DNA of 64,000 bases from Thermodesulfobacteriota bacterium (GCA_965205855.1 OZ242184.1:886570-950569), one strand, 5' to 3'. Shown: positions 9,101-53,232, numbered from the stretch's first letter. Program-made: numbers and translations. The notes: generated by a model from the sequence alone, not told the origin.

Positions 9101-11047
9101 ATGAAAAGTAGCATATTCAAGAATATATTCATCTGGTTGCTGATTTTTGTCGGTCTCGTAGCGTTCTATCAGTTCAGGGGAATGCCGCAAGACAAGCCGC
9201 TGGAAATATCCTACAGCGATTTTCTCGCCCATGTTGAAAACGGGAAAATCAGCAGTGTGGAAATAACCCTTGAAGATAGCTTAATTCAGGGCTCATTTAC
9301 AAAAGGATTTATCCCGCTGCAAGAGGCATTGCCTGAAAACGCCGCGTCTGTACAAGGCGCTGAAGCGAACAAAACCGACCGGTCTGTTACTTTCAAAACA
9401 TTCGGTCCCGTGGAAGAGAACTACCTGCTTCAAACTCTCAGAGAAAACGGAGTAAAGTTCAGTTACGCGAAAAATTCGGGTAGAAGCTTCGGGCAGATTT
9501 TAATAAGCTGGGGACCGTTTCTGCTCCTTATAATACTTATGGTTTTCTTTCTGCGCCAGATTCAGGCAGGCGGCTCAAAAGCGATGTCCTTCGGCAAGAA
9601 CAAGGCTAAAAAACTGGACACTGAAAACAACAAAATAACATTTGACGATGTGGCGGGAATCGAAGAAGCAAAAGAGGAAGTCGGAGAGATAGTAGACTTT
9701 CTGCAAAACCCGGCAAGGTTCACTTCAATAGGAGGCAAAATTCCGAAAGGGGTGTTGCTTGTTGGGCCCCCCGGAACGGGAAAAACCCTTCTCGCCCGCG
9801 CGATTGCGGGAGAAGCCAACGTTCCATTTTTTCTGATAAGCGGAAGTGATTTTGTTGAAATGTTTGTTGGCGTCGGCGCTTCAAGGGTCAGAGACCTTTT
9901 CGCTCAGGCGAAAAAGAGTGCTCCATGCATAATATTTGTGGATGAACTTGACGCGGTCGGCAGGCACAGAGGAGCTGGTCTTGGAGGAGGCCATGATGAA
10001 AGGGAGCAAACCCTCAACCAGCTTCTTGTGGAAATGGACGGCTTTGAAAACAACAGGGGAACAATAGTTATGGCGGCAACAAACCGTCCCGATGTTCTTG
10101 ACCCTGCGCTTCTGCGTCCGGGGAGGTTTGATAGACAGATAGTTGTTTCCAGACCCGACTTCAAAGGACGCAAAGCCATACTTCAGGTTCACTCAAGAAA
10201 AACCCCTCTGCAAACAAATGTGGACCTTGAGGTAATAGCACTGTCAACTCCGGGGTTTTCCGGCGCGGATCTTGAAAACCTTGTGAATGAGTCGGTTCTT
10301 CACGCTGCGCGCAATGGAAACAAGATGGTCTCAATGGAAGACTTTGAATACGCCAAGGACAAAATAATGATGGGTTCGGAAAGAAAAAGTCTTGTCATAA
10401 ATGAGAAAGAGCGGAATATCACTGCTTACCACGAAGCCGGACACGCCGTGGTCGCAAAACTCACTCCGGGCGCGGACCCAGTGCACAAGGTAACAATTAT
10501 TCCGCGTGGAATGGCTCTCGGCCTCACGCAGCAGATACCCAAAGAAGACACATACACACAGTCGCGCTCTTATCTGAACACTTTGATAATGGTGCTGCTC
10601 GGCGGGCGCGCAGCGGAAGAAATCATCTTCGGAGAACGCACAAGCGGAGCCGGAAACGATTTGAAAAGAGTTACCGAAATAGCCAGAAAGATGGTCTGCG
10701 AGTGGGGAATGAGCGAAAAAATAGGCCCCATATCACTCGCGAAAACCGAAGAGCAAGTTTTCCTCGGAAAAGAGTTTGCGAAAGCATTCGACCACAGTCA
10801 GCGGACCGCCGAAAAAATAGACATGGAAATCAAAGCGATTGTGGAAATGAACTATGGGAAAAGCAAAAGGGTTTTGAACAACAACATAGAACTGCTCAAA
10901 TCGGTTGCCAAGAGGCTTTTAAAAAAAGAAAGCATCACCGGCAGGGAAATAGACGAAATAATGGAAGCCTCAAACCTTTTCGTCAAACATTTTAAAGACA
11001 GAAAATCCTCAGAAATGGAATCGGGGCCGCAACAAGCCCGCGCATGA
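9101..11047 (+). CDS. ftsH: ATP-dependent zinc metalloprotease FtsH
   Basis: Two N-terminal TM segments, AAA+ motifs [11 protein letters not shown] and IIFVDELDA, zinc site HEAGHAV. The ATG at 9101 (MKSSIF...) is preferred over the TTG at 9059. Confidence 0.95.
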
Positions 11048-42446: not shown

Positions 42447-42764
42447 CTACCCTTTTATACCGGTTATGCGAACCGATGTGTATCTCTGCCGGTGTCCGGC
42501 TTTAAGTCTGTATTTTTTGCGTCTTTTGAATTTAAAAACGGTAATTTTAGGTCCTTTCTTCTGAGAGACGATTTCGCCTTTAACTTCCGCTCCGTCAACA
42601 ACGGGAGTACCCACGCGCGCCTCACCCTCTCCGTCCGAAACCATAAGCACATCGGGAAATCCGATCGTGTCTCCGGGGCTACCCTCGATTTTTTCTATGT
42701 CAAGAACATCTCCGGATTTGACCAAGTACTGTCTGTTTCCTGTTCTTATTACTGCCTGCTGCAT
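42447..42764 (-). CDS. rplU: 50S ribosomal protein L21
   Basis: 105 aa. MQQAVIRTGNRQYLV...KFKRRKKY...GHRQ pattern. Confidence 0.95.
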   Translation of the reverse strand: MQQAVIRTGNRQYLVKSGDVLDIEKIEGSPGDTIGFPDVLMVSDGEGEARVGTPVVDGAEVKGEIVSQKKGPKITVFKFKRRKKYRLKAGHRQRYTSVRITGIKG

Positions 42765-42788
42765 AAAGATTGCTCCGCTCTTGGAAGG

Positions 42789-43547
42789 TCAATTATGCCA
42801 CAAAAAGGGATGGAGTGTCAAACTATACGGCGACCGCCTGATAGTCGGGGAGTTCACCCATTGTTTTCCCTCAAGAGCGCGTCCCGTCTTCTTTTTGTTC
42901 ACACCGCCCCATTGTTTGAAGAAAAACGGAACCCCGCTTTCAACGCAGTTGTCCCTGATTTCCGTAACCCATTCCTCTTTCATCGGTCTTGCGCCGGGGC
43001 CGGACTCTCCACCGACAATGACCCAGTCTATGCCTGACAAATTGAGGTTTGGAAACGGGGCAAGCAACGGTTCAAGAGAAAGAAACTTCACGCAAGCATC
43101 GGTCTGTTTTAAAACTTCTGTACGGGAAAGATATTTCTCGGACTCTACGCTTGTTCCCATCCAGATGTTGGAAGTCCAGTGCAGGTGTTTGTTCGCCTTC
43201 ACAACCCTTTCCGGTCTTTTTGTGAGAACCTGAAAAGTGTGTTGAGATGCTTCGTTCATAACTTCAAAAACGGACATAATGAATTTTGCGGGAACATCCT
43301 TGTGGAACAAATCGCTCATTGAATTGACAAAAACTATTTTCGGTTTTTTCCATTTAAGCGGGTCTTTCAAAGTGTGTTCATGAGTGGTGAGTTTGAAACC
43401 GTTTCTGTATTTCTCCATCCCTTGAGCGTGAAGCCGCTTTGCCATCCGCTCGGCGTAGCAGTATTTGCAACCGTGGCTGATTTTTGAACAACCGGTAATG
43501 GGGTTCCATGTTGTGTGAGTCCATCCTATTTTGGAGGGTTGGGTCAT
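42789..43547 (-). CDS. DUF5131 / phage Gp37-Gp68 family protein (Cys-cluster, radical-SAM-like)
   Basis: 252 aa. N-terminal [27 protein letters not shown] signature as I recall for Pfam PF07505. Its start overlaps the res stop (TAATG). Confidence 0.75.
42792..42821 (-). promoter_or_regulatory. candidate rplU-rpmA promoter embedded in the last codons of the upstream DUF5131 gene
   Basis: On the minus strand, TTGACA-18 nt-CATAAT. The -10 hexamer spans the final His-Asn codons (CAT AAT), directly before the TGA stop of the DUF5131 ORF. A GGAG Shine-Dalgarno and the rplU ATG follow within about 30 nt. Confidence 0.45.
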
Positions 43548-46090
43548 TACTGTTTGTTGATAACACCGTTTATATCGTCCCGCCAGCTGTCTTCAAACAT
43601 CATCCTGAAAGTAGCGGGCGTCTTATTGATGGCCATTTCGCCTCTGTCAAGGGCGATCCTGTATGTTTTTTCAAGCGTGTCGAGCAATTTTTTCTTGTAA
43701 CTCGTATCTTCGCTGCCTTTCAGGTGGATGCCCTTTGTTTCCAGAATTAGCAGTTTTCCGTTATCTTTTCGGCAGGCCACAAAATCGGGATACACGCGCT
43801 GGCGTCGCCAGCCTTGCAGATAGTACGCTTGTCTTGCAGCTATTCTGTGCCACCAGTAGATGGCGTTGCTCTTATCCAGATAAAGCGCAAAATCCCGCTC
43901 CAGACCGTTAAAACTACTTTCATAAACAGGTTCAAAAAGGTTTTGCTGTATAGGTCTGCCATGTTCGCTCTGTAATGATCTTTCTTGACTGGAAACAAAA
44001 ACCTCGAACGACTTGCTCAATTCGTAGTCCAGTCGCTGGTCGGTCTCAAGGTGAAACCGAATCACATTCCGCCCAACCTTTTCCCGAAACACCGCTTCGG
44101 CCTCGTCGTCTATGGCCTTGTTCACGCGGCGGCTCAATTCTTCGGAAAGGTAAATTCGGTTATTCAACAATTTGCTTTCATCGTGTTTCCTGTTTTTATG
44201 TGTTTGAATAAACCCCTCCGCCATGCGCGCCGCCTGCCACGGATTGGGCACCTTGTCCACAAGCCGCCGAACAAAATAATCCACGCTCAGCCGCTTTTCG
44301 CTGTCAGGGATTTGTTCCGAAGCCTTAACCTGCCCTTGAATGTCCACCGTGGTTTTGATCTCCTGAGTGATGTCTCTATCATCCAGATTCACCGCTGCGC
44401 CCGCGTCAATGGTGTCCCAATCAATCGCGCTTAATATATCGCGGTCGTAATCAATGGGGCGCCAGGTGCGCCCCGCTTTGTGTAACACCTGCGGGAGAAA
44501 AATTTTCAATGGCCGGTATTTACCACGACGTTTGACGGTGGTCGGTTTCGGTGCATCGCCCTCGCCATGCCCGTGAACAAAATCGCCAAGCCCGGTCAGC
44601 CCTTCATTCTCCAGGCCGGCCTTCACGCCTTTGATCGCCTTGCCTACGACCTGATTATAGCAATAGATATAACACTGGTTCAGCGCATCGCCTTGTGCGA
44701 TTCTGCGTGCATGGGGTTGCCGCATCACCCGACCGACCATTTGCGTGATGGCGGTGGTTGCGGTGGTGTTATCCAGCAAGGCAAGCAGATATGCAAACGA
44801 GCAATCCCAGCCTTCTTTCAGCGCGTCTTTGGTGATAATCCAGCGCACCTCGCTTGTCTCGCTCAACAAATCCTCACCCGCAAGTTCCTTGCGTTCCGAT
44901 GATTGAATCCTGATGTGATTCTCCGGCACAGCAAGATTTTGTATCAGGTATTCGCGCGCATCCTCCGAATGAATTTTTCCTTGCCCTCTTTGTTTTGCGC
45001 CCGTTCTTTCCACCCTGACCAAAGCGATGGGTCGGATATGGCGGTTTTCCTGTTCCTGTAATTTTTGCGCCGCACTTTCAAGCTCATCCAGTTTTTCCTG
45101 TGTTTTGGCAAGCGTGTGTTCCCAGTCGGAATTGCTGAAACTGTGAATCTCTATCGGCAGTTTGATCATCTCCTCGTCCTGGAGGTCGCGGCCCGATGTG
45201 TTGACCAGGATATTGCTGATGCCGATTTTCGGCGTGGCGGACAGTTCAAGCACAAAACGGGGGTTGAGCCGGTTGACGGATTTGACAAACTCCTGGTTGT
45301 TTTGATTATTCGGTCCATATGCTTTATGCGCTTCGTCCAAAATCACCGTGGGACGAATCAGTTTCAGCACATTGATCAGGCTTTGCTTAACCCAGTCGCC
45401 GGGTGCATTTTTCTCCAGGTCGGGATGGTGTTCCGAAAGCGTTGCATTGGCCGCCGCGTCATCCTGCTCGGGAAAAAACGACATATACCCGCTGCTGTCG
45501 CGGAATATTTTGAGAAACTCCCTGTTCTTTTGCCGGTTGGCGGAGGGTAGCATCAGCAGCATAATGCAAAGATAGTTTTCGGTATCCTGTCGGGTAAAGC
45601 GGTCGGTTTTTTGCAACAATTTGACCCTGCCGCCAGACATATGTTCGAGCATCTGCCGGTAGGTATGTTCGCGGGTGTGGAACGCCTGGCGGGTCTGCTC
45701 GTAGATCGCCCGGGTCGGCACAATCCACAACACAAAGCCGGTATCCCGCTTGATCCGCTCAAGCGTGGCCACGCCCAACAGCGTCTTGCCGCCGCCGGTC
45801 GGCACCTTCAGGCAAACATGCGGGATGGGTTCGCCGGATGCCGCAGTGCGGGAAATGTAGCCGGGAACTGCCATGTCACCGTCTTGGGAAATGCCGGGGA
45901 GGATATTTTGATCTTTCAGCGCCTTCCAAGCTAAGAGGGGATAGTTTTGCAGTTCTTCAGGAATATCAATCCCCGACTCTTCAAGAGCTTTGCCCGCCTT
46001 TTCACTAGTCAGCCGCGCTTCCTTGAGCGCGTCCAGCCAGCGGTCTAACTGTTCAAGAGCTTGTTGCTGATAGTTTTTCAGGGAGAGCAT
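43547..46090 (-). CDS. res: Type III restriction enzyme Res subunit (SF2 helicase plus C-terminal nuclease)
   Basis: Helicase motif I VPTGGGKT, motif [10 protein letters not shown], motif [12 protein letters not shown], and a C-terminal PD-ExK-like YPDF...LILETKG. The ATG at 46090 ([13 protein letters not shown]) is preferred because the tracked start at 46225 overlaps orf185. Confidence 0.85.
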
Positions 46091-46091
46091 A

Positions 46092-46649
46092 TCACGGATT
46101 TTTTGAGTCAGTACTGTCTGAATTATTTGGCAAATTGATGATTTCAACAGGCACATTCCTTTTACCAACTGCAAGACCGACAGCGTAGTTACGGATAATA
46201 GTTTGATCCATTTCCATATCCGCATAGCCTTGTGGATAGTACGAACCCCTTAGAATTTCCATCTGTTCTACCTTAAAATCTAGCACCTTGGCCATTGAGC
46301 TAAGCATCTCCGTGAGCAATTCCATTTGCTCCTTGCCGAGTCGTTCATAGTGCGAACGAGAATCATTTTCTTCGTTAGGCCTCTTAGCATGCGTTTCACC
46401 ATAATGCTTGCGGAGTGCTGCCCATTTTTCTATAACTTCTTTATGCTTAACAAATTCTATCTCAACCAGATTAATGGCTCCGACATAATCAGGTGATAAA
46501 CGCGCATTTCGTGTACGCATTAACGTCTTGAATATATCCATTTTTCGCGCCTTTTGTTCGCGCCATCTGTCAAGAAGACCGTTAACCCAGACAGCTGCGC
46601 AAGGACCGATTAAGATGGCTGCAATGGTGATGATAGAATATGAATTCAT
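46092..46649 (-). CDS. hypothetical membrane-anchored protein (185 aa) between mod and res
   Basis: N-terminal TM helix SIITIAAILIGPCAAVWV, then a charged helical region. Visibly AT-richer than the flanking mod and res sequence. Start lies 2 nt after the mod stop, and its stop lies 1 nt before the res ATG. Confidence 0.6.
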   Translation of the reverse strand: MNSYSIITIAAILIGPCAAVWVNGLLDRWREQKARKMDIFKTLMRTRNARLSPDYVGAINLVEIEFVKHKEVIEKWAALRKHYGETHAKRPNEENDSRSHYERLGKEQMELLTEMLSSMAKVLDFKVEQMEILRGSYYPQGYADMEMDQTIIRNYAVGLAVGKRNVPVEIINLPNNSDSTDSKNP

Positions 46650-46651
46650 GT

Positions 46652-48115
46652 TTATCTTATACCCTCATATGGTAATTGGGCAAAAGTTATCCCCATCTCG
46701 GTTAATGCTTTTTGTCCCATGAATTTGTGAGTGGCGAACACCACCGCGGTTTTCTTTTTTGCCTTGGCCTGTTTGGCGATGCGTTCGGCGCGGGTGCTGT
46801 TCAAAGCGGAATCCGCACTGCGCAGAAAATCAAGGTTCGGCTCGTAGATCAGGTAAAACATTTTGTCACCTGCTTCATAAAATAAACCGTCTTTGCCACG
46901 CCTTGTTTTCGGGTTGAGTTTATGCGGCGATTGTCCGCTTGCGGTATAGATCAGATGGCGGGCAAAGGTTTCATAGCCCGGCAGGTTCCTGCCGGTGAGC
47001 ATTTTTTCAATGCTGATTTCATCGCCCAGTGTGCAATAGGCAAAACTGCCGCCCAGTCCGTTTTTTAGGTTCTCATCCTTTGCTTTTGGTATGCCCTTTA
47101 TCACACGGCGAACGCGCTCGGCGGTGATTTTGTCGGCGTAGTCTTCGCATTCCACCAAGATAAATTTGCGGTTGCCGCCGTCTTCCTTGTTCAGCGCAAG
47201 CACGGCGTGGGCAGTGGTGCCGGAACCGGCGAAGGAGTCGAGGATAATGGCGTTTTTTGTCGTTGCCAGTTGTAAAATCTTTTTCACAAGGGAAATTGGT
47301 TTGGGGTTTTGGAACTGATTAGAACCAAACACCGTCCTCAACTCGATTGTGCCGTTGGTTGTTGTACCTACATCATCCCACCAAGTGCTAGGCGTTAACC
47401 CCCTTCGGCGTGCCTCTGACAAAAAACGTTTGCGCTGAGGTCTGGAACTATTTCTCTTTCCGAATACGATTCTATTGTCTGCAAGAAGCTCCTCAAATTT
47501 GTTCAAATCGTTTTTCCAGCAATTACCTTCAGTGGGGTAAAATATTTCTTTTGTTTTAGGGTTTCTTATCGGATACATCTGATTAGGTCGAACCCCACCA
47601 GCCTCAAATGGATCCGCCTTCCATGGGCCTCTCGGATCATTATCAGGATTTTTGAATCCTTCTAAAATGGCAGGAAGTTTGAAATCTTTTCTAATGGTTT
47701 TTAATACATTCAGTTGTTTAGCATAAGCTATATTATGAGTGTGTGATATTGATACTAATGCAGGATTTGTAATTGATTTTGTGCTATGCCACACAAAATC
47801 TGCAACAAAATTCTCCTCCCCAAAAATCTCATCCATGACCATCCGCAGGCGGTGCTGTTCATTGTCGTCGATGGAAATAAAAATTACGCCATCTTCGGCC
47901 AGCAATTCTCTTAACAACTGCAATCTTGGCCACATCATGCACAGCCATTTGTCGTGCCGCTCCAGGTCTTCGCCATCCACCGGACTTTTGCCTTTCAGCC
48001 ACGCCTTCATCATCGGGCTGTTGACATTGTCGTTATAGACCCATTTCTCATTGCCGGTGTTGTAGGGCGGGTCGATGTAAATGCAGTTGACGCGGCTGGC
48101 ATAGCGCGGCAGCAA
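46652..48115 (-). CDS. mod: Type III-like DNA methyltransferase Mod (beta-class N6/N4), main frame downstream of a frameshift
   Basis: Motif IV IDPPYNTG precedes motif I DSFAGSGTT. The frame stays open upstream of the tracked TTG start up to the stop at 48203..48205 (..SFSEKWGGNPSLDDNLIIHGDNLHALKA). The N-terminal 37 codons lie in another frame (next feature). Confidence 0.85.
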   Translation of the reverse strand: MLPRYASRVNCIYIDPPYNTGNEKWVYNDNVNSPMMKAWLKGKSPVDGEDLERHDKWLCMMWPRLQLLRELLAEDGVIFISIDDNEQHRLRMVMDEIFGEENFVADFVWHSTKSITNPALVSISHTHNIAYAKQLNVLKTIRKDFKLPAILEGFKNPDNDPRGPWKADPFEAGGVRPNQMYPIRNPKTKEIFYPTEGNCWKNDLNKFEELLADNRIVFGKRNSSRPQRKRFLSEARRRGLTPSTWWDDVGTTTNGTIELRTVFGSNQFQNPKPISLVKKILQLATTKNAIILDSFAGSGTTAHAVLALNKEDGGNRKFILVECEDYADKITAERVRRVIKGIPKAKDENLKNGLGGSFAYCTLGDEISIEKMLTGRNLPGYETFARHLIYTASGQSPHKLNPKTRRGKDGLFYEAGDKMFYLIYEPNLDFLRSADSALNSTRAERIAKQAKAKKKTAVVFATHKFMGQKALTEMGITFAQLPYEGIR

Positions 48116-48150
48116 CGCCTTGAGCGCGTGCAGATTGTCGCCGTGGATAA

Positions 48151-48291
48151 TCAGATTGTCATCAAGGGAAGGGTTACCCCCCCATTTTTCGCTGAAAGAG
48201 ATTTTTTAGTGTCTATCTCAAGTGTCCTGGACGGAACAGTCAGGTGGTGCGCATAAATGAGTTGCTTCCCTTTGAAATCAATTGTCGGCAT
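48151..48291 (-). pseudogene. mod: 5' segment of mod in a different frame, separated from the main frame at a G7 tract
   Basis: The ATG at 48291 opens MPTIDFKGKQLIYAHHLTVPSRTLEIDTKKSLSAKN followed by the G7 run (plus-strand C7 at 48177..48183). As written, the frame ends at the TGA at 48151. One extra G joins it to the Mod main frame. Confidence 0.7.
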
Positions 48292-48448
48292 TGAAAACCC
48301 CGTAAATCAGTTTGATATTGGCTTTGAAGATACCCGATTTACTCCCCCAACCTAAACCCCTCAACCTCCCGATGCACCGCCCCTTCCCGTCTCAATTCAC
48401 TCTCCATCAAACAAACTCTTTCAGAAGCAAAACCAAGTTCAAACTGCG
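48285..48448 (-). repeat. direct repeat copy A: thpR(ligT) 3'-end fragment, downstream spacer and first 7 nt of mod
   Basis: Identical base-for-base, by manual alignment, to 51106..51269. Its inner end is truncated by the IS1380-family remnant. Confidence 0.9.
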
Positions 48449-48768
48449 CCCGCGGTGACATGGAGAACCGGATCAAGGATCAGCAGTTGGATTTGTTTGC
48501 GGATCGCACCTCTTGTCACCGCTGGTGGCCCAACCAGTGCCGGCAGTTGCTGTCAGGGTTGGCTTACACGTTGATTGAGGGATTGCGGCGCCTTGCACTA
48601 CAGGGCACCGAACTGGCCAAAGCCAGTCCTCACAGGATCAGGCTGACACTGCTTAAAATCGGTGCCGTGATCATCCGCAACACGCGCCGCATCCGCCTAC
48701 TGATGAGCAGTGCTTATCCCCATCAGGCGTTGTTCCGCACGGCAGCCTATCGGCTCAACTCCCCATAA
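48449..48768 (+). mobile_element. IS1380-family transposase C-terminal remnant (pseudogene)
   Basis: Encodes only ..ARGDMENRIKDQQLDLFADRTSCHRWWPNQCRQLLSGLAYTL..., which resembles the conserved C-terminal block of IS1380 DDE transposases. About 340 N-terminal residues are absent. Confidence 0.65.
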
Positions 48769-48959
48769 ACCCAACCCAGTGCTGCCCCGGCATGTTGATA
48801 AACAATGGGGGTAGGGGGAGTTGCGCCCGAAATCTGTGAACAACGAAAGAATTGATCAAAGAACAGGCAACTGCATCATATGATGCATCGACAGGGATGG
48901 CGCTACCGAAAAATCGACCACCACCGCTTCACTCATGAAATATCCGGGATAGTCTCGCT

Positions 48960-50099
48960 TTATTTTCGGATGAGAAACAGAAATTCTTTATTCGGATCGC
49001 TGGATTCCCGCAACCACTCATTTGTCCATTTCATGGCGGCCATCACATTTTTTTTATACTCAATTTTTGCGCTATCCACAATTTCTCCGTTACGCGTTAT
49101 CACCTCGTTTAATTCCTCCGCGGTTGCTCGTCCACCGGAACTGTAAGAGAGCAAGATCCATCGGCAAGGAGTTTCCTTCAGCAAACGCTCTATGGCTTCC
49201 ACCACAACCAATCGTCCTGATTTGCTTCTACGAAATTCCTCGAACACTGAAGTCGCCACTTTATCGGATGTGTCTTTTCTGCGGAGGGACTTGCCAAATA
49301 GCACGGGATGATCATTTTTACATATGGTCGTCCACAAATGATAATATGAAGCGTACCGAACCCTTGAAGGTGGCATTTTTTCATTGTTTGACCCATACGG
49401 AGGATCAAAATAAGCAAGATCGGCGTCCGCTTCGGGAAGTACCTTAAAAACATCACCACACAGCACCGTGTTTTCGATTTCATTTTTCCACAACCGTGGC
49501 ACTTTCAATTGTAAATTTTTGAATGAACGCGGCGACCAATCTTTTAAATAAGAAACAAAATGACCAAGAGTACTGTCTATCTCATTCAACCCTAAAATCA
49601 GGCTTGTCAATGCCACACTTTTGGAAACGTCATCCAGCATCAAGGCATCGATCTCTCTCCTGATTGCATCAAGTTTTCTTGTATTTTTTTTCTGCCAAGG
49701 CTTTTTGGTTCCATCCTTCTGAATAGCATTATGGCAAGTTCCAGAGCGAACATCACCACCGTAATTCTCAGTAAACCATCCGTCTTCCGGAGGAAGCGAA
49801 TTTAAATGATCAATAAGAGGTTGGTATATTTTCGGGTTTTTTAAGTTTTTCAAATAGCACGTGGCAAAAATTCTTGACCATTCGGAAATATCATTTGATA
49901 CCACGCGATATCCTGCTTGTGCAAAAGATTGACTTACTCTGGTGGAGCCTGAAAAACCGTCAAAAATGCTTTTTGCTCCGGTCTGTTTTGACAGATTAAA
50001 AATATGTGGAAGCAGTTTCAGTTTTGAGCCTGCGTAATTGATGCCTTCGGTTTTTGGAACATCAATCCAATCACGAAAAATTTGAACTTGCCCTTGCAT
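48960..50099 (-). CDS. adenine-specific DNA methyltransferase, alpha-class (Dam / D12-like)
   Basis: 379 aa. NYAGSKLKLL, motif I FDGFSGS, motif IV FDPPYG, and a C-terminus ending in EFLFLIRK typical of D12-class enzymes. Confidence 0.8.
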   Translation of the reverse strand: MQGQVQIFRDWIDVPKTEGINYAGSKLKLLPHIFNLSKQTGAKSIFDGFSGSTRVSQSFAQAGYRVVSNDISEWSRIFATCYLKNLKNPKIYQPLIDHLNSLPPEDGWFTENYGGDVRSGTCHNAIQKDGTKKPWQKKNTRKLDAIRREIDALMLDDVSKSVALTSLILGLNEIDSTLGHFVSYLKDWSPRSFKNLQLKVPRLWKNEIENTVLCGDVFKVLPEADADLAYFDPPYGSNNEKMPPSRVRYASYYHLWTTICKNDHPVLFGKSLRRKDTSDKVATSVFEEFRRSKSGRLVVVEAIERLLKETPCRWILLSYSSGGRATAEELNEVITRNGEIVDSAKIEYKKNVMAAMKWTNEWLRESSDPNKEFLFLIRK

Positions 50100-50776
50100 T
50101 ATGTAACTTTAAAGCGGGAAGCCTGCTTGAGTCTAACAATATCATCTTTCACTTTTGCAAGAGCCTCATTCTGGCCGAAATCAGAAGAAACAAGCGCGTG
50201 AGAAAATAGTTGGACCAAGATAGGATTGTGAGAATAATCAACCCATCCATTGGTTATGCTATCAAAATAGTTTAAACCACTTTTTGTATGAGTCCAAAGC
50301 CCTCGCTGGAGGGCATTGGCGGTTGCGCTTCCATAACGCACCTCGCAAATATAAGAATCGCTTGCATCGTAGAAACGATATACTGGGTGCTTTCTACCTT
50401 TCTTTTTTGTTTCTTTTACTATTTTCACCGTTTCAGTTTCAGCGCGGTGGTAATCGAAGACAAGAATATTACACTGTCGATTTTTTTCGTCATAAATTAA
50501 TGGCAAAACATTTACATTGTAAAAATCCGAGAAAGCGGGGTCGGCAAGCACTCGTTGTACATTTTTCTTGCCCACTATTTCATCCCCCTCTTGTGCCAAT
50601 CTCGGAAACATTTTGAAATTCTTGTCGGTTGAAAGTTGAAGGGGACCATCACCATACGCTTTGATGCTAACAGGAAATTCAGCTTCGGTTACTTCATTTA
50701 TTATTTTGATGTCTTCTTCCCGAGATTTGGCTCTGTATAAATCTTTGCCAACATGGATCGAGCGAAAATCATACAT
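50099..50776 (-). CDS. hypothetical protein, candidate Type II restriction endonuclease partner of the Dam-like methylase
   Basis: 225 aa. Its stop overlaps the methylase start. Possible PD-ExK-like element (FYDASDSYICEVRYG). No family recognised. Confidence 0.4.
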   Translation of the reverse strand: MYDFRSIHVGKDLYRAKSREEDIKIINEVTEAEFPVSIKAYGDGPLQLSTDKNFKMFPRLAQEGDEIVGKKNVQRVLADPAFSDFYNVNVLPLIYDEKNRQCNILVFDYHRAETETVKIVKETKKKGRKHPVYRFYDASDSYICEVRYGSATANALQRGLWTHTKSGLNYFDSITNGWVDYSHNPILVQLFSHALVSSDFGQNEALAKVKDDIVRLKQASRFKVT

Positions 50777-50777
50777 A

Positions 50778-50987
50778 CTACTGGTTGATAAATTCGGCTA
50801 TGGCGATTTCTGCCAAATCTCCATGTGTTTTATTTCCAATGAGGCGCATGGTGAAAATGTTGCTCAATGTCAAGATTATTAAATCCGGGCGTTTACTCGC
50901 AAGAAGCTTCAATCTCGAGATGAAATCTTTATATGGATCATTTTTCATGTTTTTCGTTTGATGCCTCTGTTTTGGTATTTTTATCAA
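50778..50987 (-). CDS. hypothetical 69-aa ORF, separate small gene or detached N-terminal part of the 225-aa ORF
   Basis: It ends at a TAG one nt before the ATG of the next ORF (CAG TAG T ATG). It is in a different frame from that ORF. Confidence 0.3.
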   Translation of the reverse strand: MIKIPKQRHQTKNMKNDPYKDFISRLKLLASKRPDLIILTLSNIFTMRLIGNKTHGDLAEIAIAEFINQ

Positions 50988-51105
50988 CCTTCATTTTTCA
51001 GATCGTCGCATGAGCTTGGGTTGAGATGATTCGGTAGCGTCATCGAGAATTCATGTGTATCAATTGCTGTTCAAGTTTAACCCGTTTTGCCTGTAAATCA
51101 CCCAA

Positions 51106-51335
51106 TCGGCATTGAAAACCCCGTAAATCAGTTTGATATTGGCTTTGAAGATACCCGATTTACTCCCCCAACCTAAACCCCTCAACCTCCCGATGCACCG
51201 CCCCTTCCCGTCTCAATTCACTCTCCATCAAACAAACTCTTTCAGAAGCAAAACCAAGTTCAAACTGCGGCAATTCGGGTAGCTTCATCCTTTTTTTTAT
51301 CCACCCTATCGTAACGTGCGACATAAAATCCCGTT
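51106..51335 (-). repeat. direct repeat copy B: longer thpR(ligT) 3'-end fragment, spacer and first 7 nt of mod (ATGCCGA)
   Basis: 51106..51269 is identical to copy A. 51129..51335 aligns without gaps to the intact thpR 3' end (52052..52258) with about 18 mismatches by manual count. It keeps an open frame (..SHVTIGWIKKRMKLPELPQFELGFASERVCLMESELRREGAVHREVEGFRLGE*). Confidence 0.85.
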
Positions 51336-51461
51336 ATTGTAGGCTGCTGTTATGTGTAACGGAGTTTCATATGAAAATTCTCTGCTATGAGCAATTGTGG
51401 TCACTGGGATTCTCACAATTGCTGGTTGTGCGAGCCAGCCAGATTTGACAATGACTCAGTA

Positions 51462-51872
51462 TTAGTGCTCGCCCTCTTGATTAATTTGTTTCCACAAACT
51501 GCCGATAGCAAGTAGTGCTGGAATAATAAGTAGCACCACTACAATTGGCACACTTGATTTAATTACCTCTACATTTAATGCATATACGGTAATAACATCG
51601 GATATGTCCGTCAATAATCTGACAATTAATATCGCTAAAAGTGCTTTATGAGACTTAAGGAATAAAGCAACTATTATCCCTATAACTACCATTACATTTC
51701 TTGTAATGTAAAGTTGTGTAACATAATTCAATTCGGAAACCTCTGGTATGAAACCACTTGGGTTCATGGCCGTACCAGCTGAGAAGAAAAGCACTAAAGA
51801 TATTTGTATTAGAACAATGACCCATACCCAAATAGGTAAGAATCCATTGGTTTGACCATTTTTGTAATTCAT
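51462..51872 (-). CDS. hypothetical four-TM membrane protein (136 aa), AT-rich cargo
   Basis: Four hydrophobic helices. Markedly AT-rich by eye. Lies between repeat copy B and the IS1595 remnant. Confidence 0.5.
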   Translation of the reverse strand: MNYKNGQTNGFLPIWVWVIVLIQISLVLFFSAGTAMNPSGFIPEVSELNYVTQLYITRNVMVVIGIIVALFLKSHKALLAILIVRLLTDISDVITVYALNVEVIKSSVPIVVVLLIIPALLAIGSLWKQINQEGEH

Positions 51873-51905
51873 ATTTGCAACCTCTTATTTTTACCTAATT
51901 ATCAC

Positions 51906-52052
51906 TTAAACTAAGCAGAGTTTCAAGATATTTTCCGGCATCGGCGGCGTTTTGAGCGCTGCATAAGCAAGTCTCGGTATTAACTCGCACAAATCAAAGC
52001 GACGATTGAAACGATACTGAAATTCTGACAAATAACGCTGTGCGTATTTTTC
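51906..52052 (-). mobile_element. IS1595-family transposase C-terminal remnant (pseudogene)
   Basis: The minus strand encodes EKYAQRYLSEFQYRFNRRFDLCELIPRLAYAALKTPPMPENILKLCLV*. The YL.EF.YRFNRR block is the conserved C-terminal signature of ISXO2-like/IS1595 transposases. It abuts repeat copy C directly. Confidence 0.65.
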
Positions 52053-52258
52053 AGTTTGATATTGGCTTTGAAAATACCCGATTTACTCCCCCAACCTAAA
52101 ACCCTCAACCTCCCGATGCACCGCCCCTTCTCGTCTCAATTCACTCTCCATCAAACAAACCCTGTCAGAAACAAACTCAAGTTTAAACTGCGGCAATTCG
52201 GGCAGTTTTATCCTTTTTCTTATCCGCCCTATCGTAATGTGTGGTATAAAATCCCGTT
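52052..52258 (-). repeat. direct repeat copy C: 3' end of the intact thpR gene plus 31 nt downstream
   Basis: Homologous to copy B over 207 nt (about 91% identity by manual count) and to copy A over its shorter extent. Confidence 0.85.
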
Positions 52259-52664
52259 TCTCCGGCTCAAAACCGATTGTCTCAAGTTTTGAGTCAATCT
52301 CGTCCTTGAGACTGAAAAACGCGTCCCCGGATTCCGCAATCACCGCAAGCGTCTGCGTATAACGGCGGAGTATAAGCGCCTCAACCCCGTCCGTTGTGAT
52401 GTCGAGCGGCACAAACCGCTTGCAACAACTTTCAATAACCCCGCACAGTTCGGGAATCAATTCGCGGCGCGTCTCTCCGAGAAACCTTAAAGTAATATGG
52501 AATTTTTCAGACAGCTCCCAACGCACATGGCGGAGCGAGCGTATTGCGGCGGAACGGGATTTTATCACCCTTTTTGCTTTTTCGGGAACTTCAAGAGAAA
52601 TAAAAAGCCGGACGGTAGCGCTGTCAACTCTCAAGCTCAACATTCCAGTATGAGGCATCAACAA
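52083..52664 (-). CDS. thpR: RNA 2',3'-cyclic phosphodiesterase ThpR (LigT, 2H phosphoesterase)
   Basis: Two H-x-T-x motifs (HITLRFLG and HITIGR). The true start may be the ATG at 52643, which overlaps the HNH gene stop by 20 nt. Confidence 0.8.
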   Translation of the reverse strand: MLMPHTGMLSLRVDSATVRLFISLEVPEKAKRVIKSRSAAIRSLRHVRWELSEKFHITLRFLGETRRELIPELCGVIESCCKRFVPLDITTDGVEALILRRYTQTLAVIAESGDAFFSLKDEIDSKLETIGFEPEKRDFIPHITIGRIRKRIKLPELPQFKLEFVSDRVCLMESELRREGAVHREVEGFRLGE

Positions 52665-53232
52665 AACTTACAAACGGCTCCCATTCTTTGTAGCGGATTG
52701 GGTGCGCGTAAATGTTTGCAAACGGTCCCCACTGCGGTTCGGAGGGAATTGTGAGCAATTTCATCCTTGCCTGTTCGGGAGTTCTACCGCCTTTTCTGCG
52801 GTTGCACGAGCCGCAGGAGCAGACAACATTGTCCCATCTGCTTTCTCCGCCGTGCGCGCGCGGAATAACATGGTCTATCGTAAGCTCGGTTTTGGAAAAA
52901 TGCTTTCCGCAGTATTGGCATTTACCGCTGTCTCTGCGGAATATGTTGAAGCGCGTAAATCTCGGACGCTTTCTGTGAAATCCGCTGTAACGGAGCAGGA
53001 TTATAACCCTCGGCGCTTTGATGATCCTTGTAACGGTTCTCACATAGTCGCCACGCCCTCCGGCGGCAGAGGCGGCGGAAACCTCCGCCCAACTCTCAAA
53101 ATCAAAAGTCTCGTAGGTTTTTGTTACGGCTTTCGCCTCGCCGCAATAGAGCATCACAAATGCCCGTCGCAAATTGGTAACGGAAACGGGCATATAGTTT
53201 TTGTTCAAAACCAGAACCGGCGAACTCAACAT
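52624..53232 (-). CDS. HNH endonuclease-domain protein
   Basis: 202 aa. CQYCG...DHVIPRAHGGESRWDNVVCSCGSCNRRKG is an HNH/zinc-finger core. Confidence 0.8.
   Translation of the reverse strand: MLSSPVLVLNKNYMPVSVTNLRRAFVMLYCGEAKAVTKTYETFDFESWAEVSAASAAGGRGDYVRTVTRIIKAPRVIILLRYSGFHRKRPRFTRFNIFRRDSGKCQYCGKHFSKTELTIDHVIPRAHGGESRWDNVVCSCGSCNRRKGGRTPEQARMKLLTIPSEPQWGPFANIYAHPIRYKEWEPFVSFVDASYWNVELES

Follow-up and report, generated by a model that had tools for sequence, protein, structure and literature searches.

The movement of defence genes, such as RM systems that carry no mobility genes of their own, is still poorly documented. One described class consists of RM systems inserted with target duplications of 46 to 423 bp and without mobility genes (Nobusato et al. 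2000; Furuta, Abe and Kobayashi 2010, PMC2853133). Insertion accompanied by a long duplication of the target has so far been inferred only from genome pairs, and its mechanism is unexplained. A second precedent is the strings of orphan 3' regions in Rhs/T6SS loci, for which homology-facilitated illegitimate recombination was proposed (PMC5361080). Integration of e14 or phage 21 into icd, which leaves the icdC pseudogene, is summarized in a passage of PMC13626634 that cites Hill et al. (1989), and IS-linked movement of RM systems is described in the part of Takahashi et al. (2011, PMC3031569) drawn on here.

At the locus analyzed here, the 3' end of thpR is present three times in a 64-kb window (the whole stretch of DNA that was analyzed), and the copies sit in a defence island of 9.3 kb that is bordered by the core genes thpR and rplU (Table 1). 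Judged from the DNA of this locus and its relatives, these ends are probably the scars of two foreign-DNA acquisitions, each made by illegitimate, microhomology-guided joining and with no site-specific integrase involved. As such they are a clear example of an already known process, and the modest addition is an event for which donor and target sequences are at hand to read each of the two joints. For that event the sequences show the capture of a linear fragment with arbitrary ends, one in a tRNA-synthetase gene and the other in a transposase gene, through microhomologies of 6 to 9 nt and with a target overlap of 164 nt. As a practical caution, a displaced gene end beside an island is, alone, no evidence of an integrase-type element.

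Read along the minus strand, the island runs from thpR (with copy C) through an IS1595 fragment, a 136-aa membrane gene, copy B, type II R and M genes, an IS1380 fragment in the opposite orientation, copy A, Type III mod, DUF6680, Type III res, and DUF5131 to rplU. Further out, one side is bordered by hisD, hisC, lgt, and an HNH gene, the other by rpmA, alaS, and a sigma factor gene. Matches for island ORFs were to RM genes, DUF5131, DUF6680, and two transposase fragments.

Table 1. Features of the thpR-rplU interval, with positions counted from the first nucleotide of the 64-kb window.
Feature	Position	Strand	Remarks
rplU	42447-42764		24 nt from island end
DUF5131	42789-43547	-	Pfam
Type III res	43547-46225	-	Pfam
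DUF6680	46092-46649	-	Pfam
Type III mod	46652..48291	-	out of frame via G7 tract; intact 546-aa ORF with G8
copy A: 3' part of thpR (about codon 150 through stop), intergenic sequence, mod start	48285..48448	-	contiguous with Type III RM
ISPa33-like IS1380-family fragment, last 105 transposase codons and IS right end	48443..48949	+	Pfam DDE_Tnp_1_4, NCBIfam transpos_IS1380
imported type II RM module	48950..51114	-	98.7% identity over 2165 nt to L013, L014, L015; L016 in three aligned segments
D12-class m6A methyltransferase gene (M)	48960-50099	-	Pfam MethyltransfD12
type II R gene	50099-50948	-	frameshifted, +1 nt at 50778
donor valS 3' end, 75 nt, hitch-hiker (QCRLGDLQAKRVKLEQQLIHMNSR, then stop)	51040..51114	-	matches intact valS C-terminus, L013
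junction J3 of copy B	51105/51106
copy B: orphan thpR 3' end, codon 129 to stop, 47-nt intergenic sequence, ATGCCGA of mod	51106..51335	-
junction J2 of copy B	51335/51336
136-aa predicted membrane protein gene	51462..51872	-	GC 0.35; sole member of its 90%-identity cluster
IS1595-family transposase 3' fragment, last ~48 codons (KYAQRYL…) and IS right end	51889..52050	-	homologues with PF12762
copy C: thpR last 176 nt and 31 nt downstream	52051..52258	-	208-nt ungapped match to B
intact thpR/ligT, 186 aa, 2',3'-cyclic phosphodiesterase	52083..52643	-	core gene, both HxT motifs, Pfam LigT_PEase 1.6e-17

The thpR gene itself (P0001, 100% identity), which also matches Pfam 2_5_RNA_ligase2, is intact, and repeats of its 3' end (C, B, and A) accompany it. 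All three copies are direct repeats in the window, where a 27-nt core of the repeat occurs exactly three times (0 of 100 shuffles); a scan of viral contigs with this core gave no match. Copies B (51128-51335) and C differ at 18 of 208 nt without gaps (91.3% identity by repeat search and ungapped comparison), in agreement with the gapless 207-nt match and roughly 18 mismatches given in a preliminary description of this DNA. Copies A and B (51106-51269) are identical at 164 of 164 nt, a match that includes, beyond the stretch shared by B and C, 22 downstream nucleotides (48285-48306, equal to 51106-51127), whose terminal ATGCCGA makes up the initial 7 nt of the ORF of Type III mod. In the thpR frame, copy B translates to RDFMSHVTIGWIKKRMKLPELPQFELGFASERVCLMESELRREGAVHREVEGFRLGE followed by a stop (RDFMSHVTIGW…GFRLGE), and this peptide aligns to the LigT/ThpR C-terminus, including the second HxT motif; the earlier claim of an in-frame LigT C-terminus with SHVTIG thus held on translation and on alignment to homologues. 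Repeat counts, the in-frame translation of copy B, and the LigT/ThpR family match establish that the three-copy description is correct. The inner repeat boundaries are unequal, since B begins at codon 129 and A at about codon 150.

The A/B pair can be followed joint by joint. The insert between the two copies (48449-51105, about 2.66 kb) is flanked by the 164-nt repeat with 0 mismatches. At J3, in the third mod codon, the target CAATGCCGA and the donor CAATCCCGA share the microhomology CAAT[G/C]CCGA, identical at 8 of 9 nt and formed by the first 9 nt of the valS fragment, which overlap copy B. The target there, read from copy A, is …GGGGTTTTCAATGCCGA followed by CAATTG…, the donor is …AAAAAGAACAATCCCGA followed by TTGGATG…, and the product is …GGGGTTTTCAATGCCGA followed by TTGGGTG…. 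The opposite end of the RM module, at 48950, adjoins the right end of the ISPa33-like IS1380 (…CTCATGAAATATCCGGG), a fragment matched to ISPa33 by blastn and alignment. At J4, ISPa33 homology (…CTACTGCGGCCGTGGCGACATGG…) runs into ACTGCG (48443-48448), which is the same as thpR at that point (…CAAACTGCGGCAATT…); this microhomology measures 6 to 8 nt with the IS1380 parent sequence taken from a 72%-identical relative. The truncated IS1380 end is part of the insert, and most of its transposase gene is missing at this microhomology joint. A comparison of the flanks left of A and left of B for a diverged mod remnant revealed no similarity beyond the repeat, and an apparent peptide similarity of the flanks turned out to be the valS C-terminus.

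Because the repeat ends with the ATGCCGA of mod, copy B is a copy of the genome's own thpR-mod junction and not a brought-in att site. In the event shown by this pair, a linear fragment of about 2.66 kb, from a donor ordered valS-R-M-inserted ISPa33-like IS1380 and with one end 75 nt inside valS and the other within the IS transposase gene, was joined into the resident thpR-mod junction at J3 and, about 164 nt upstream and inside thpR, at J4, with the target reconstructed from the continuity of copy A with mod and the junctions read from an assembly. Since the target positions of J3 and J4 overlap, a stretch of 164 nt was duplicated (A = B). The overlap could have arisen, for example, from fragment ends joining sister chromosomes or from a staggered break, and the duplication left the 164 nt upstream of mod still attached to mod.

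The donor of this insert has an identifiable context. Both R and M lie inside the insert, and their DNA is 98.7% identical to the R (282 aa)/M pair of L013; over the 2165 nt compared with L013, L014, and L015, 27 mismatches and one indel were counted. In the L013-L015 genome (GC 0.586) the gene order is valS-R-M-ugd, and the genome carrying L016 (GC 0.468) has part of R, about 640 nt, deleted. The window has a GC content of 0.488 and the RM module one of about 0.41. The occurrence of the module at ≥98.7% identity in three genomes with GC contents of 0.488, 0.586, and 0.468 points to a very recent horizontal spread among unrelated bacteria, L013 to L016 all coming from one ENA sample. Elsewhere the module occupies 8987-11150 of L013, 568-2731 of L015, and 9587-11492 of L016, and a search of plasmids with it gave no match.

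The ends of the module differ from copy to copy. The window retains the last 75 nt of valS (QCRLGDLQAKRVKLEQQLIHMNSR, compared with QSRLDDLQAKRVKLEQQLTHMNSR in L013, each followed by a stop), and L016 retains 114 nt of valS plus 198 nt of the far flank. Such differences are unlike the product of a site-specific process, and the valS lengths and the L016 flank indicate that the module moves as arbitrary-ended fragments with pieces of the donor's neighbouring genes. No thpR sequence was present at the module ends in L013 to L016. A 14/15-nt inverted repeat around the RM genes, with a score reached by 2 of 200 shuffles, is probably due to chance, as its two arms belong to different pieces, the IS1380 end and the valS fragment.

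Several features of the module copies are of separate interest. Compared with the intact 282-aa gene in L013, the R gene of the window has an extra base that splits it into ORFs of 69 and 225 aa, and owing to this frameshift the methyltransferase may now be an orphan. The methyltransferase gene of L016 is interrupted at 10560-10698 by a 139-nt, MITE-like insert with 18-nt inverted-repeat ends that are 94% complementary. L013 and L014 lie 2.097 Mb apart on one linear contig of 2.47 Mb, in which the same 21 kb is found twice at 99.0% identity. This doubling looks as though the assembly had run on from a circular genome into a second strain, or had concatenated strains, and calls for caution with the assemblies of this sample.

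In size and repeat length, the 2.66-kb insert falls within the RM insertion class defined by inserts of <20 kb and direct target duplications of >30 bp (PMC2853133). It resembles that class in being a short R and M insert between long direct repeats, in the absence of an integrase, in a GC content below that of the host, and in a repeat that overlaps the 3' end of a gene. Unlike that class, the insert here also contains a truncated IS1380 end and a fragment of donor valS, its R gene is frameshifted, and the donor context, the target (deduced from copy A), and the product are all readable, with microhomology at both joints.

IS1380-family elements are known for one-ended transposition of the ISEcp1 type. 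ISEcp1-like transposition of the IS1380 element together with the RM module is disfavoured here, because the other end of the module is a microhomology joint that matches the target at 8 of 9 nt and not a surrogate inverted repeat with a short target duplication. The direct contact between an IS1380-family right end and the RM module is shared with IS-linked RM movement as presented in the part of PMC3031569 used for comparison; in contrast to that precedent, the window's IS has been cut within its transposase gene, at a joint made by microhomology.

The preliminary description had attributed the repeats to an integrating element that targets the end of a gene and brings a replacement end. Applied to the whole locus, this would require integrase-bearing elements that enter the 3' end of thpR site-specifically, two of which accreted in tandem and lost their integrases. 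The topology fits, with an intact gene followed by directly repeated copies of its 3' end, each ahead of a low-GC foreign block, and B and C look allelic. The e14/icd/icdC case offers a precedent, in which, as far as the passage in PMC13626634 relates it, an alternative 3' end preserves the reading frame of a protein-coding gene and, downstream of the insert, a diverged 3' fragment remains. In that account e14, unlike the DNA at thpR, has its own integrase and excises precisely; here the junctions are illegitimate, and Pfam and NCBIfam scans gave no integrase or recombinase match among the main called ORFs of the island (42.8-52.1 kb), nor was an integrase found among the core genes next to it. 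A subsequent deletion could have removed an integrase. For the A/B pair, site-specific entry is already contradicted: instead of an element-borne replacement end, the repeat is a 100% copy of the resident thpR-mod junction that includes 7 nt of mod, and the DNA between the copies is a fragment with a donor context (valS-R-M) and a microhomology joint at each end. Other genomes hold the RM module with different ends and without thpR sequence. On its outer side, copy C meets the interior of the IS1595 transposase gene, both spacers end inside transposase genes, the inner repeat boundaries are unequal, and no thpR repeats were found in L001 or L005, the two loci in which they were sought. Entry by integrase-bearing elements, which for the B/C pair would involve subsequent loss of the integrase, is accordingly an unlikely source of these repeats. 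What did stand of the earlier account is that at least two successive events occurred at one site, as the thpR 3' end has served at least twice as a junction for incoming DNA.

The B/C pair differs from A/B in its divergence and its joints. Copy C ends at J1 (52050/52051), where the IS1595 fragment abuts it, and exactly at this point homology to the interior of IS1595-family transposase genes sets in; at the DNA level, the IS copies of L011 and L012 match 52049-51890. Copy B starts abruptly at J2. Both J1 and J2 are sharp, and microhomology was shown only at J3 and J4. The DNA divergence between B and C (8.7%) fits a diverged donor. Across their 57 shared codons, pS is 0.172 and pN 0.144 in the first 31, and pS is 0.176 and pN 0 in the last 26. 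Had B decayed neutrally throughout, about 5 nonsynonymous changes would be expected in those last 26 codons and 0 were observed, an argument that draws on the distribution of only 17 substitutions. Substitutions at positions otherwise conserved in relatives occur in both copies: B has S for P and V for I, and C has I for M and K for E. This codon pattern and the changes on both sides favour two alleles that diverged as working genes in separate lineages over a duplicate decaying in place, as the preliminary description had proposed in calling them different alleles (pS is 0.17 in both halves, with 0 amino-acid changes in the last 26 codons).

In a rival reading, both duplications would be local target duplications, long and at first identical, and B and C would since have drifted apart where they lie, or C would later have been overwritten through homologous recombination with a diverged allele. 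The A/B pair shows that such a mechanism operates here, and the spacer between B and C starts inside an IS, as does the first insert. The overall pN/pS of 0.45 is numerically compatible with neutral decay of one copy, being near the 0.5 expected when one copy is constrained. Against this, a pS of 0.17 needs a very old fragment that has remained free of indels and has 0 nonsynonymous changes in its last 26 codons (P ~0.005 under neutral decay), both copies have changed at positions otherwise conserved among relatives, and overwriting of C needs its crossover to fall in the final 22 nt ahead of the IS junction. Two local duplications are therefore rather unlikely to account for the locus.

With B and C taken as diverged alleles, the pair is best read, on its sequence pattern, as a one-sided homologous and one-sided illegitimate exchange between diverged relatives, in which a crossover would have taken place in core genes common to both and J2 would be the single illegitimate joint. 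In one direction, B would be the resident end, displaced by the import of thpR (C), the IS1595 fragment, and the membrane gene anchored upstream. In the other, B would be a piece of donor flank that hitch-hiked with the Type III RM system anchored on the rplU side, much as the valS fragment did with the type II RM system. The two directions fit equally well, so that the resident allele may be either B or C. The result resembles Rhs C-terminal displacement and the effector-immunity arrays of Vibrio T6SS loci (PMC5361080) in that newer modules are stacked beside a conserved gene and an in-frame orphan 3' fragment, a diverged allele, has been pushed downstream with no recombinase involved. Unlike those arrays, the repeated gene here is a housekeeping phosphodiesterase instead of a variable-tip toxin, and the orphan has no obvious function.

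The nature of the joints also bears on whether the repeats are an artefact of assembly, in which strain haplotypes of a variable interval were chained in tandem through a shared thpR end. The assembly is of the metagenome type, and a contig from a related sample has the same 21 kb twice at 99%. Chaining predicts junctions at repeat edges with full-length shared sequence; the copies observed are partial and end at the non-homologous J2 or at 6- to 9-nt microhomologies with a transposase interior and with foreign valS. Such an artefact is very unlikely.

Among the database matches to the IS1595 fragment, some bear the name "IS1595 family transposase, partial". All 34 of the 34 database homologues (P0035-P0068) are short ORFs of 41 to 101 aa, in several of which homology sets in at the same KYAQRYL point beside an A-run (compare 4893-6210 of L011). 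The KYAQRYL start was rejected as a true element boundary, and these ORFs are probably frameshifted or decayed IS copies. The 136-aa membrane protein encoded next to the fragment has no Pfam or NCBIfam match, and its gene was ruled out as an IS1595 passenger, as homology to the IS copies stops at about 51889, upstream of the gene. The IS1595 end and the start of the membrane gene are 17 nt apart. A promoter-like TTGAAA-17-GATAAT (10 of 12 matches; 51889-51926) lies in the IS1595 right end and points to the membrane gene, and a promoter and terminator scan of the region gave sites not above background.

Comparison with related loci places these events in a variable setting. Searches for thpR in genome contigs, metagenome contigs, and proteins returned none closer than 66% protein identity; the closest relatives have ThpR proteins 61 to 66% identical and the same hisC-lgt-HNH-thpR synteny, and in one source a relative goes by the name Candidatus Mycalebacterium. 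In L005, the order hisD-hisC-lgt-HNH-thpR … rplU-rpmA-alaS is kept, and the interval is occupied by genes for Mrr, a hypothetical protein, and an AAA_15 ATPase. A hydrolase gene comes after thpR in L001, with a Type III RM system beyond it; orthology of that system with the window's, which would have pointed to vertical inheritance, was rejected at 23% identity. A hydrolase also follows thpR in L009, L010, and L019, where the contigs stop soon after, and L018 stops inside an unannotated gene just past thpR. The preliminary description had suggested a search for insertions adjoining thpR in other genomes, and both relatives with enough contig, L005 and L001, do have different defence genes there. 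The different contents of L005, L001, and the window show the thpR-rplU interval to be a variable defence-gene site.

A further reading of this variability would make the thpR 3' end the preferred landing pad of a recombinase-independent or unrecognised capture process that stacks defence cassettes in an integron-like manner, for example through nearby breaks made by the HNH endonuclease encoded upstream of thpR. If so, repeated use of the same ~200 nt would not be chance. We regard a dedicated capture process as highly improbable.

The genes at the borders of the interval, and those of its Type III system, have features of their own. An HNH endonuclease gene of about 175 to 202 aa (52624-53232 in the window) adjoins thpR on its upstream side both in the window and in six loci from relatives, L005, L009, L010, L018, and L019 among them; it overlaps the thpR start in several loci, and in L009 an FMN reductase gene intervenes. 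Type III mod contains a G7 tract at 48177-48183 (C7 on the plus strand), and G8 restores one ORF from the ATG at 48291. The tract is either phase variable or a homopolymer sequencing error. Phase-variable Type III mod genes are known from the phasevarions of Helicobacter and Neisseria. The DUF5131 protein has weak similarity to the radical-SAM "mobile pair" protein A. From the end of its gene to the rplU start codon there are 24 nt (42765-42788), compared with 207 nt and a divergent neighbouring gene in L005, and given this short gap rplU-rpmA may be transcribed from inside the island.
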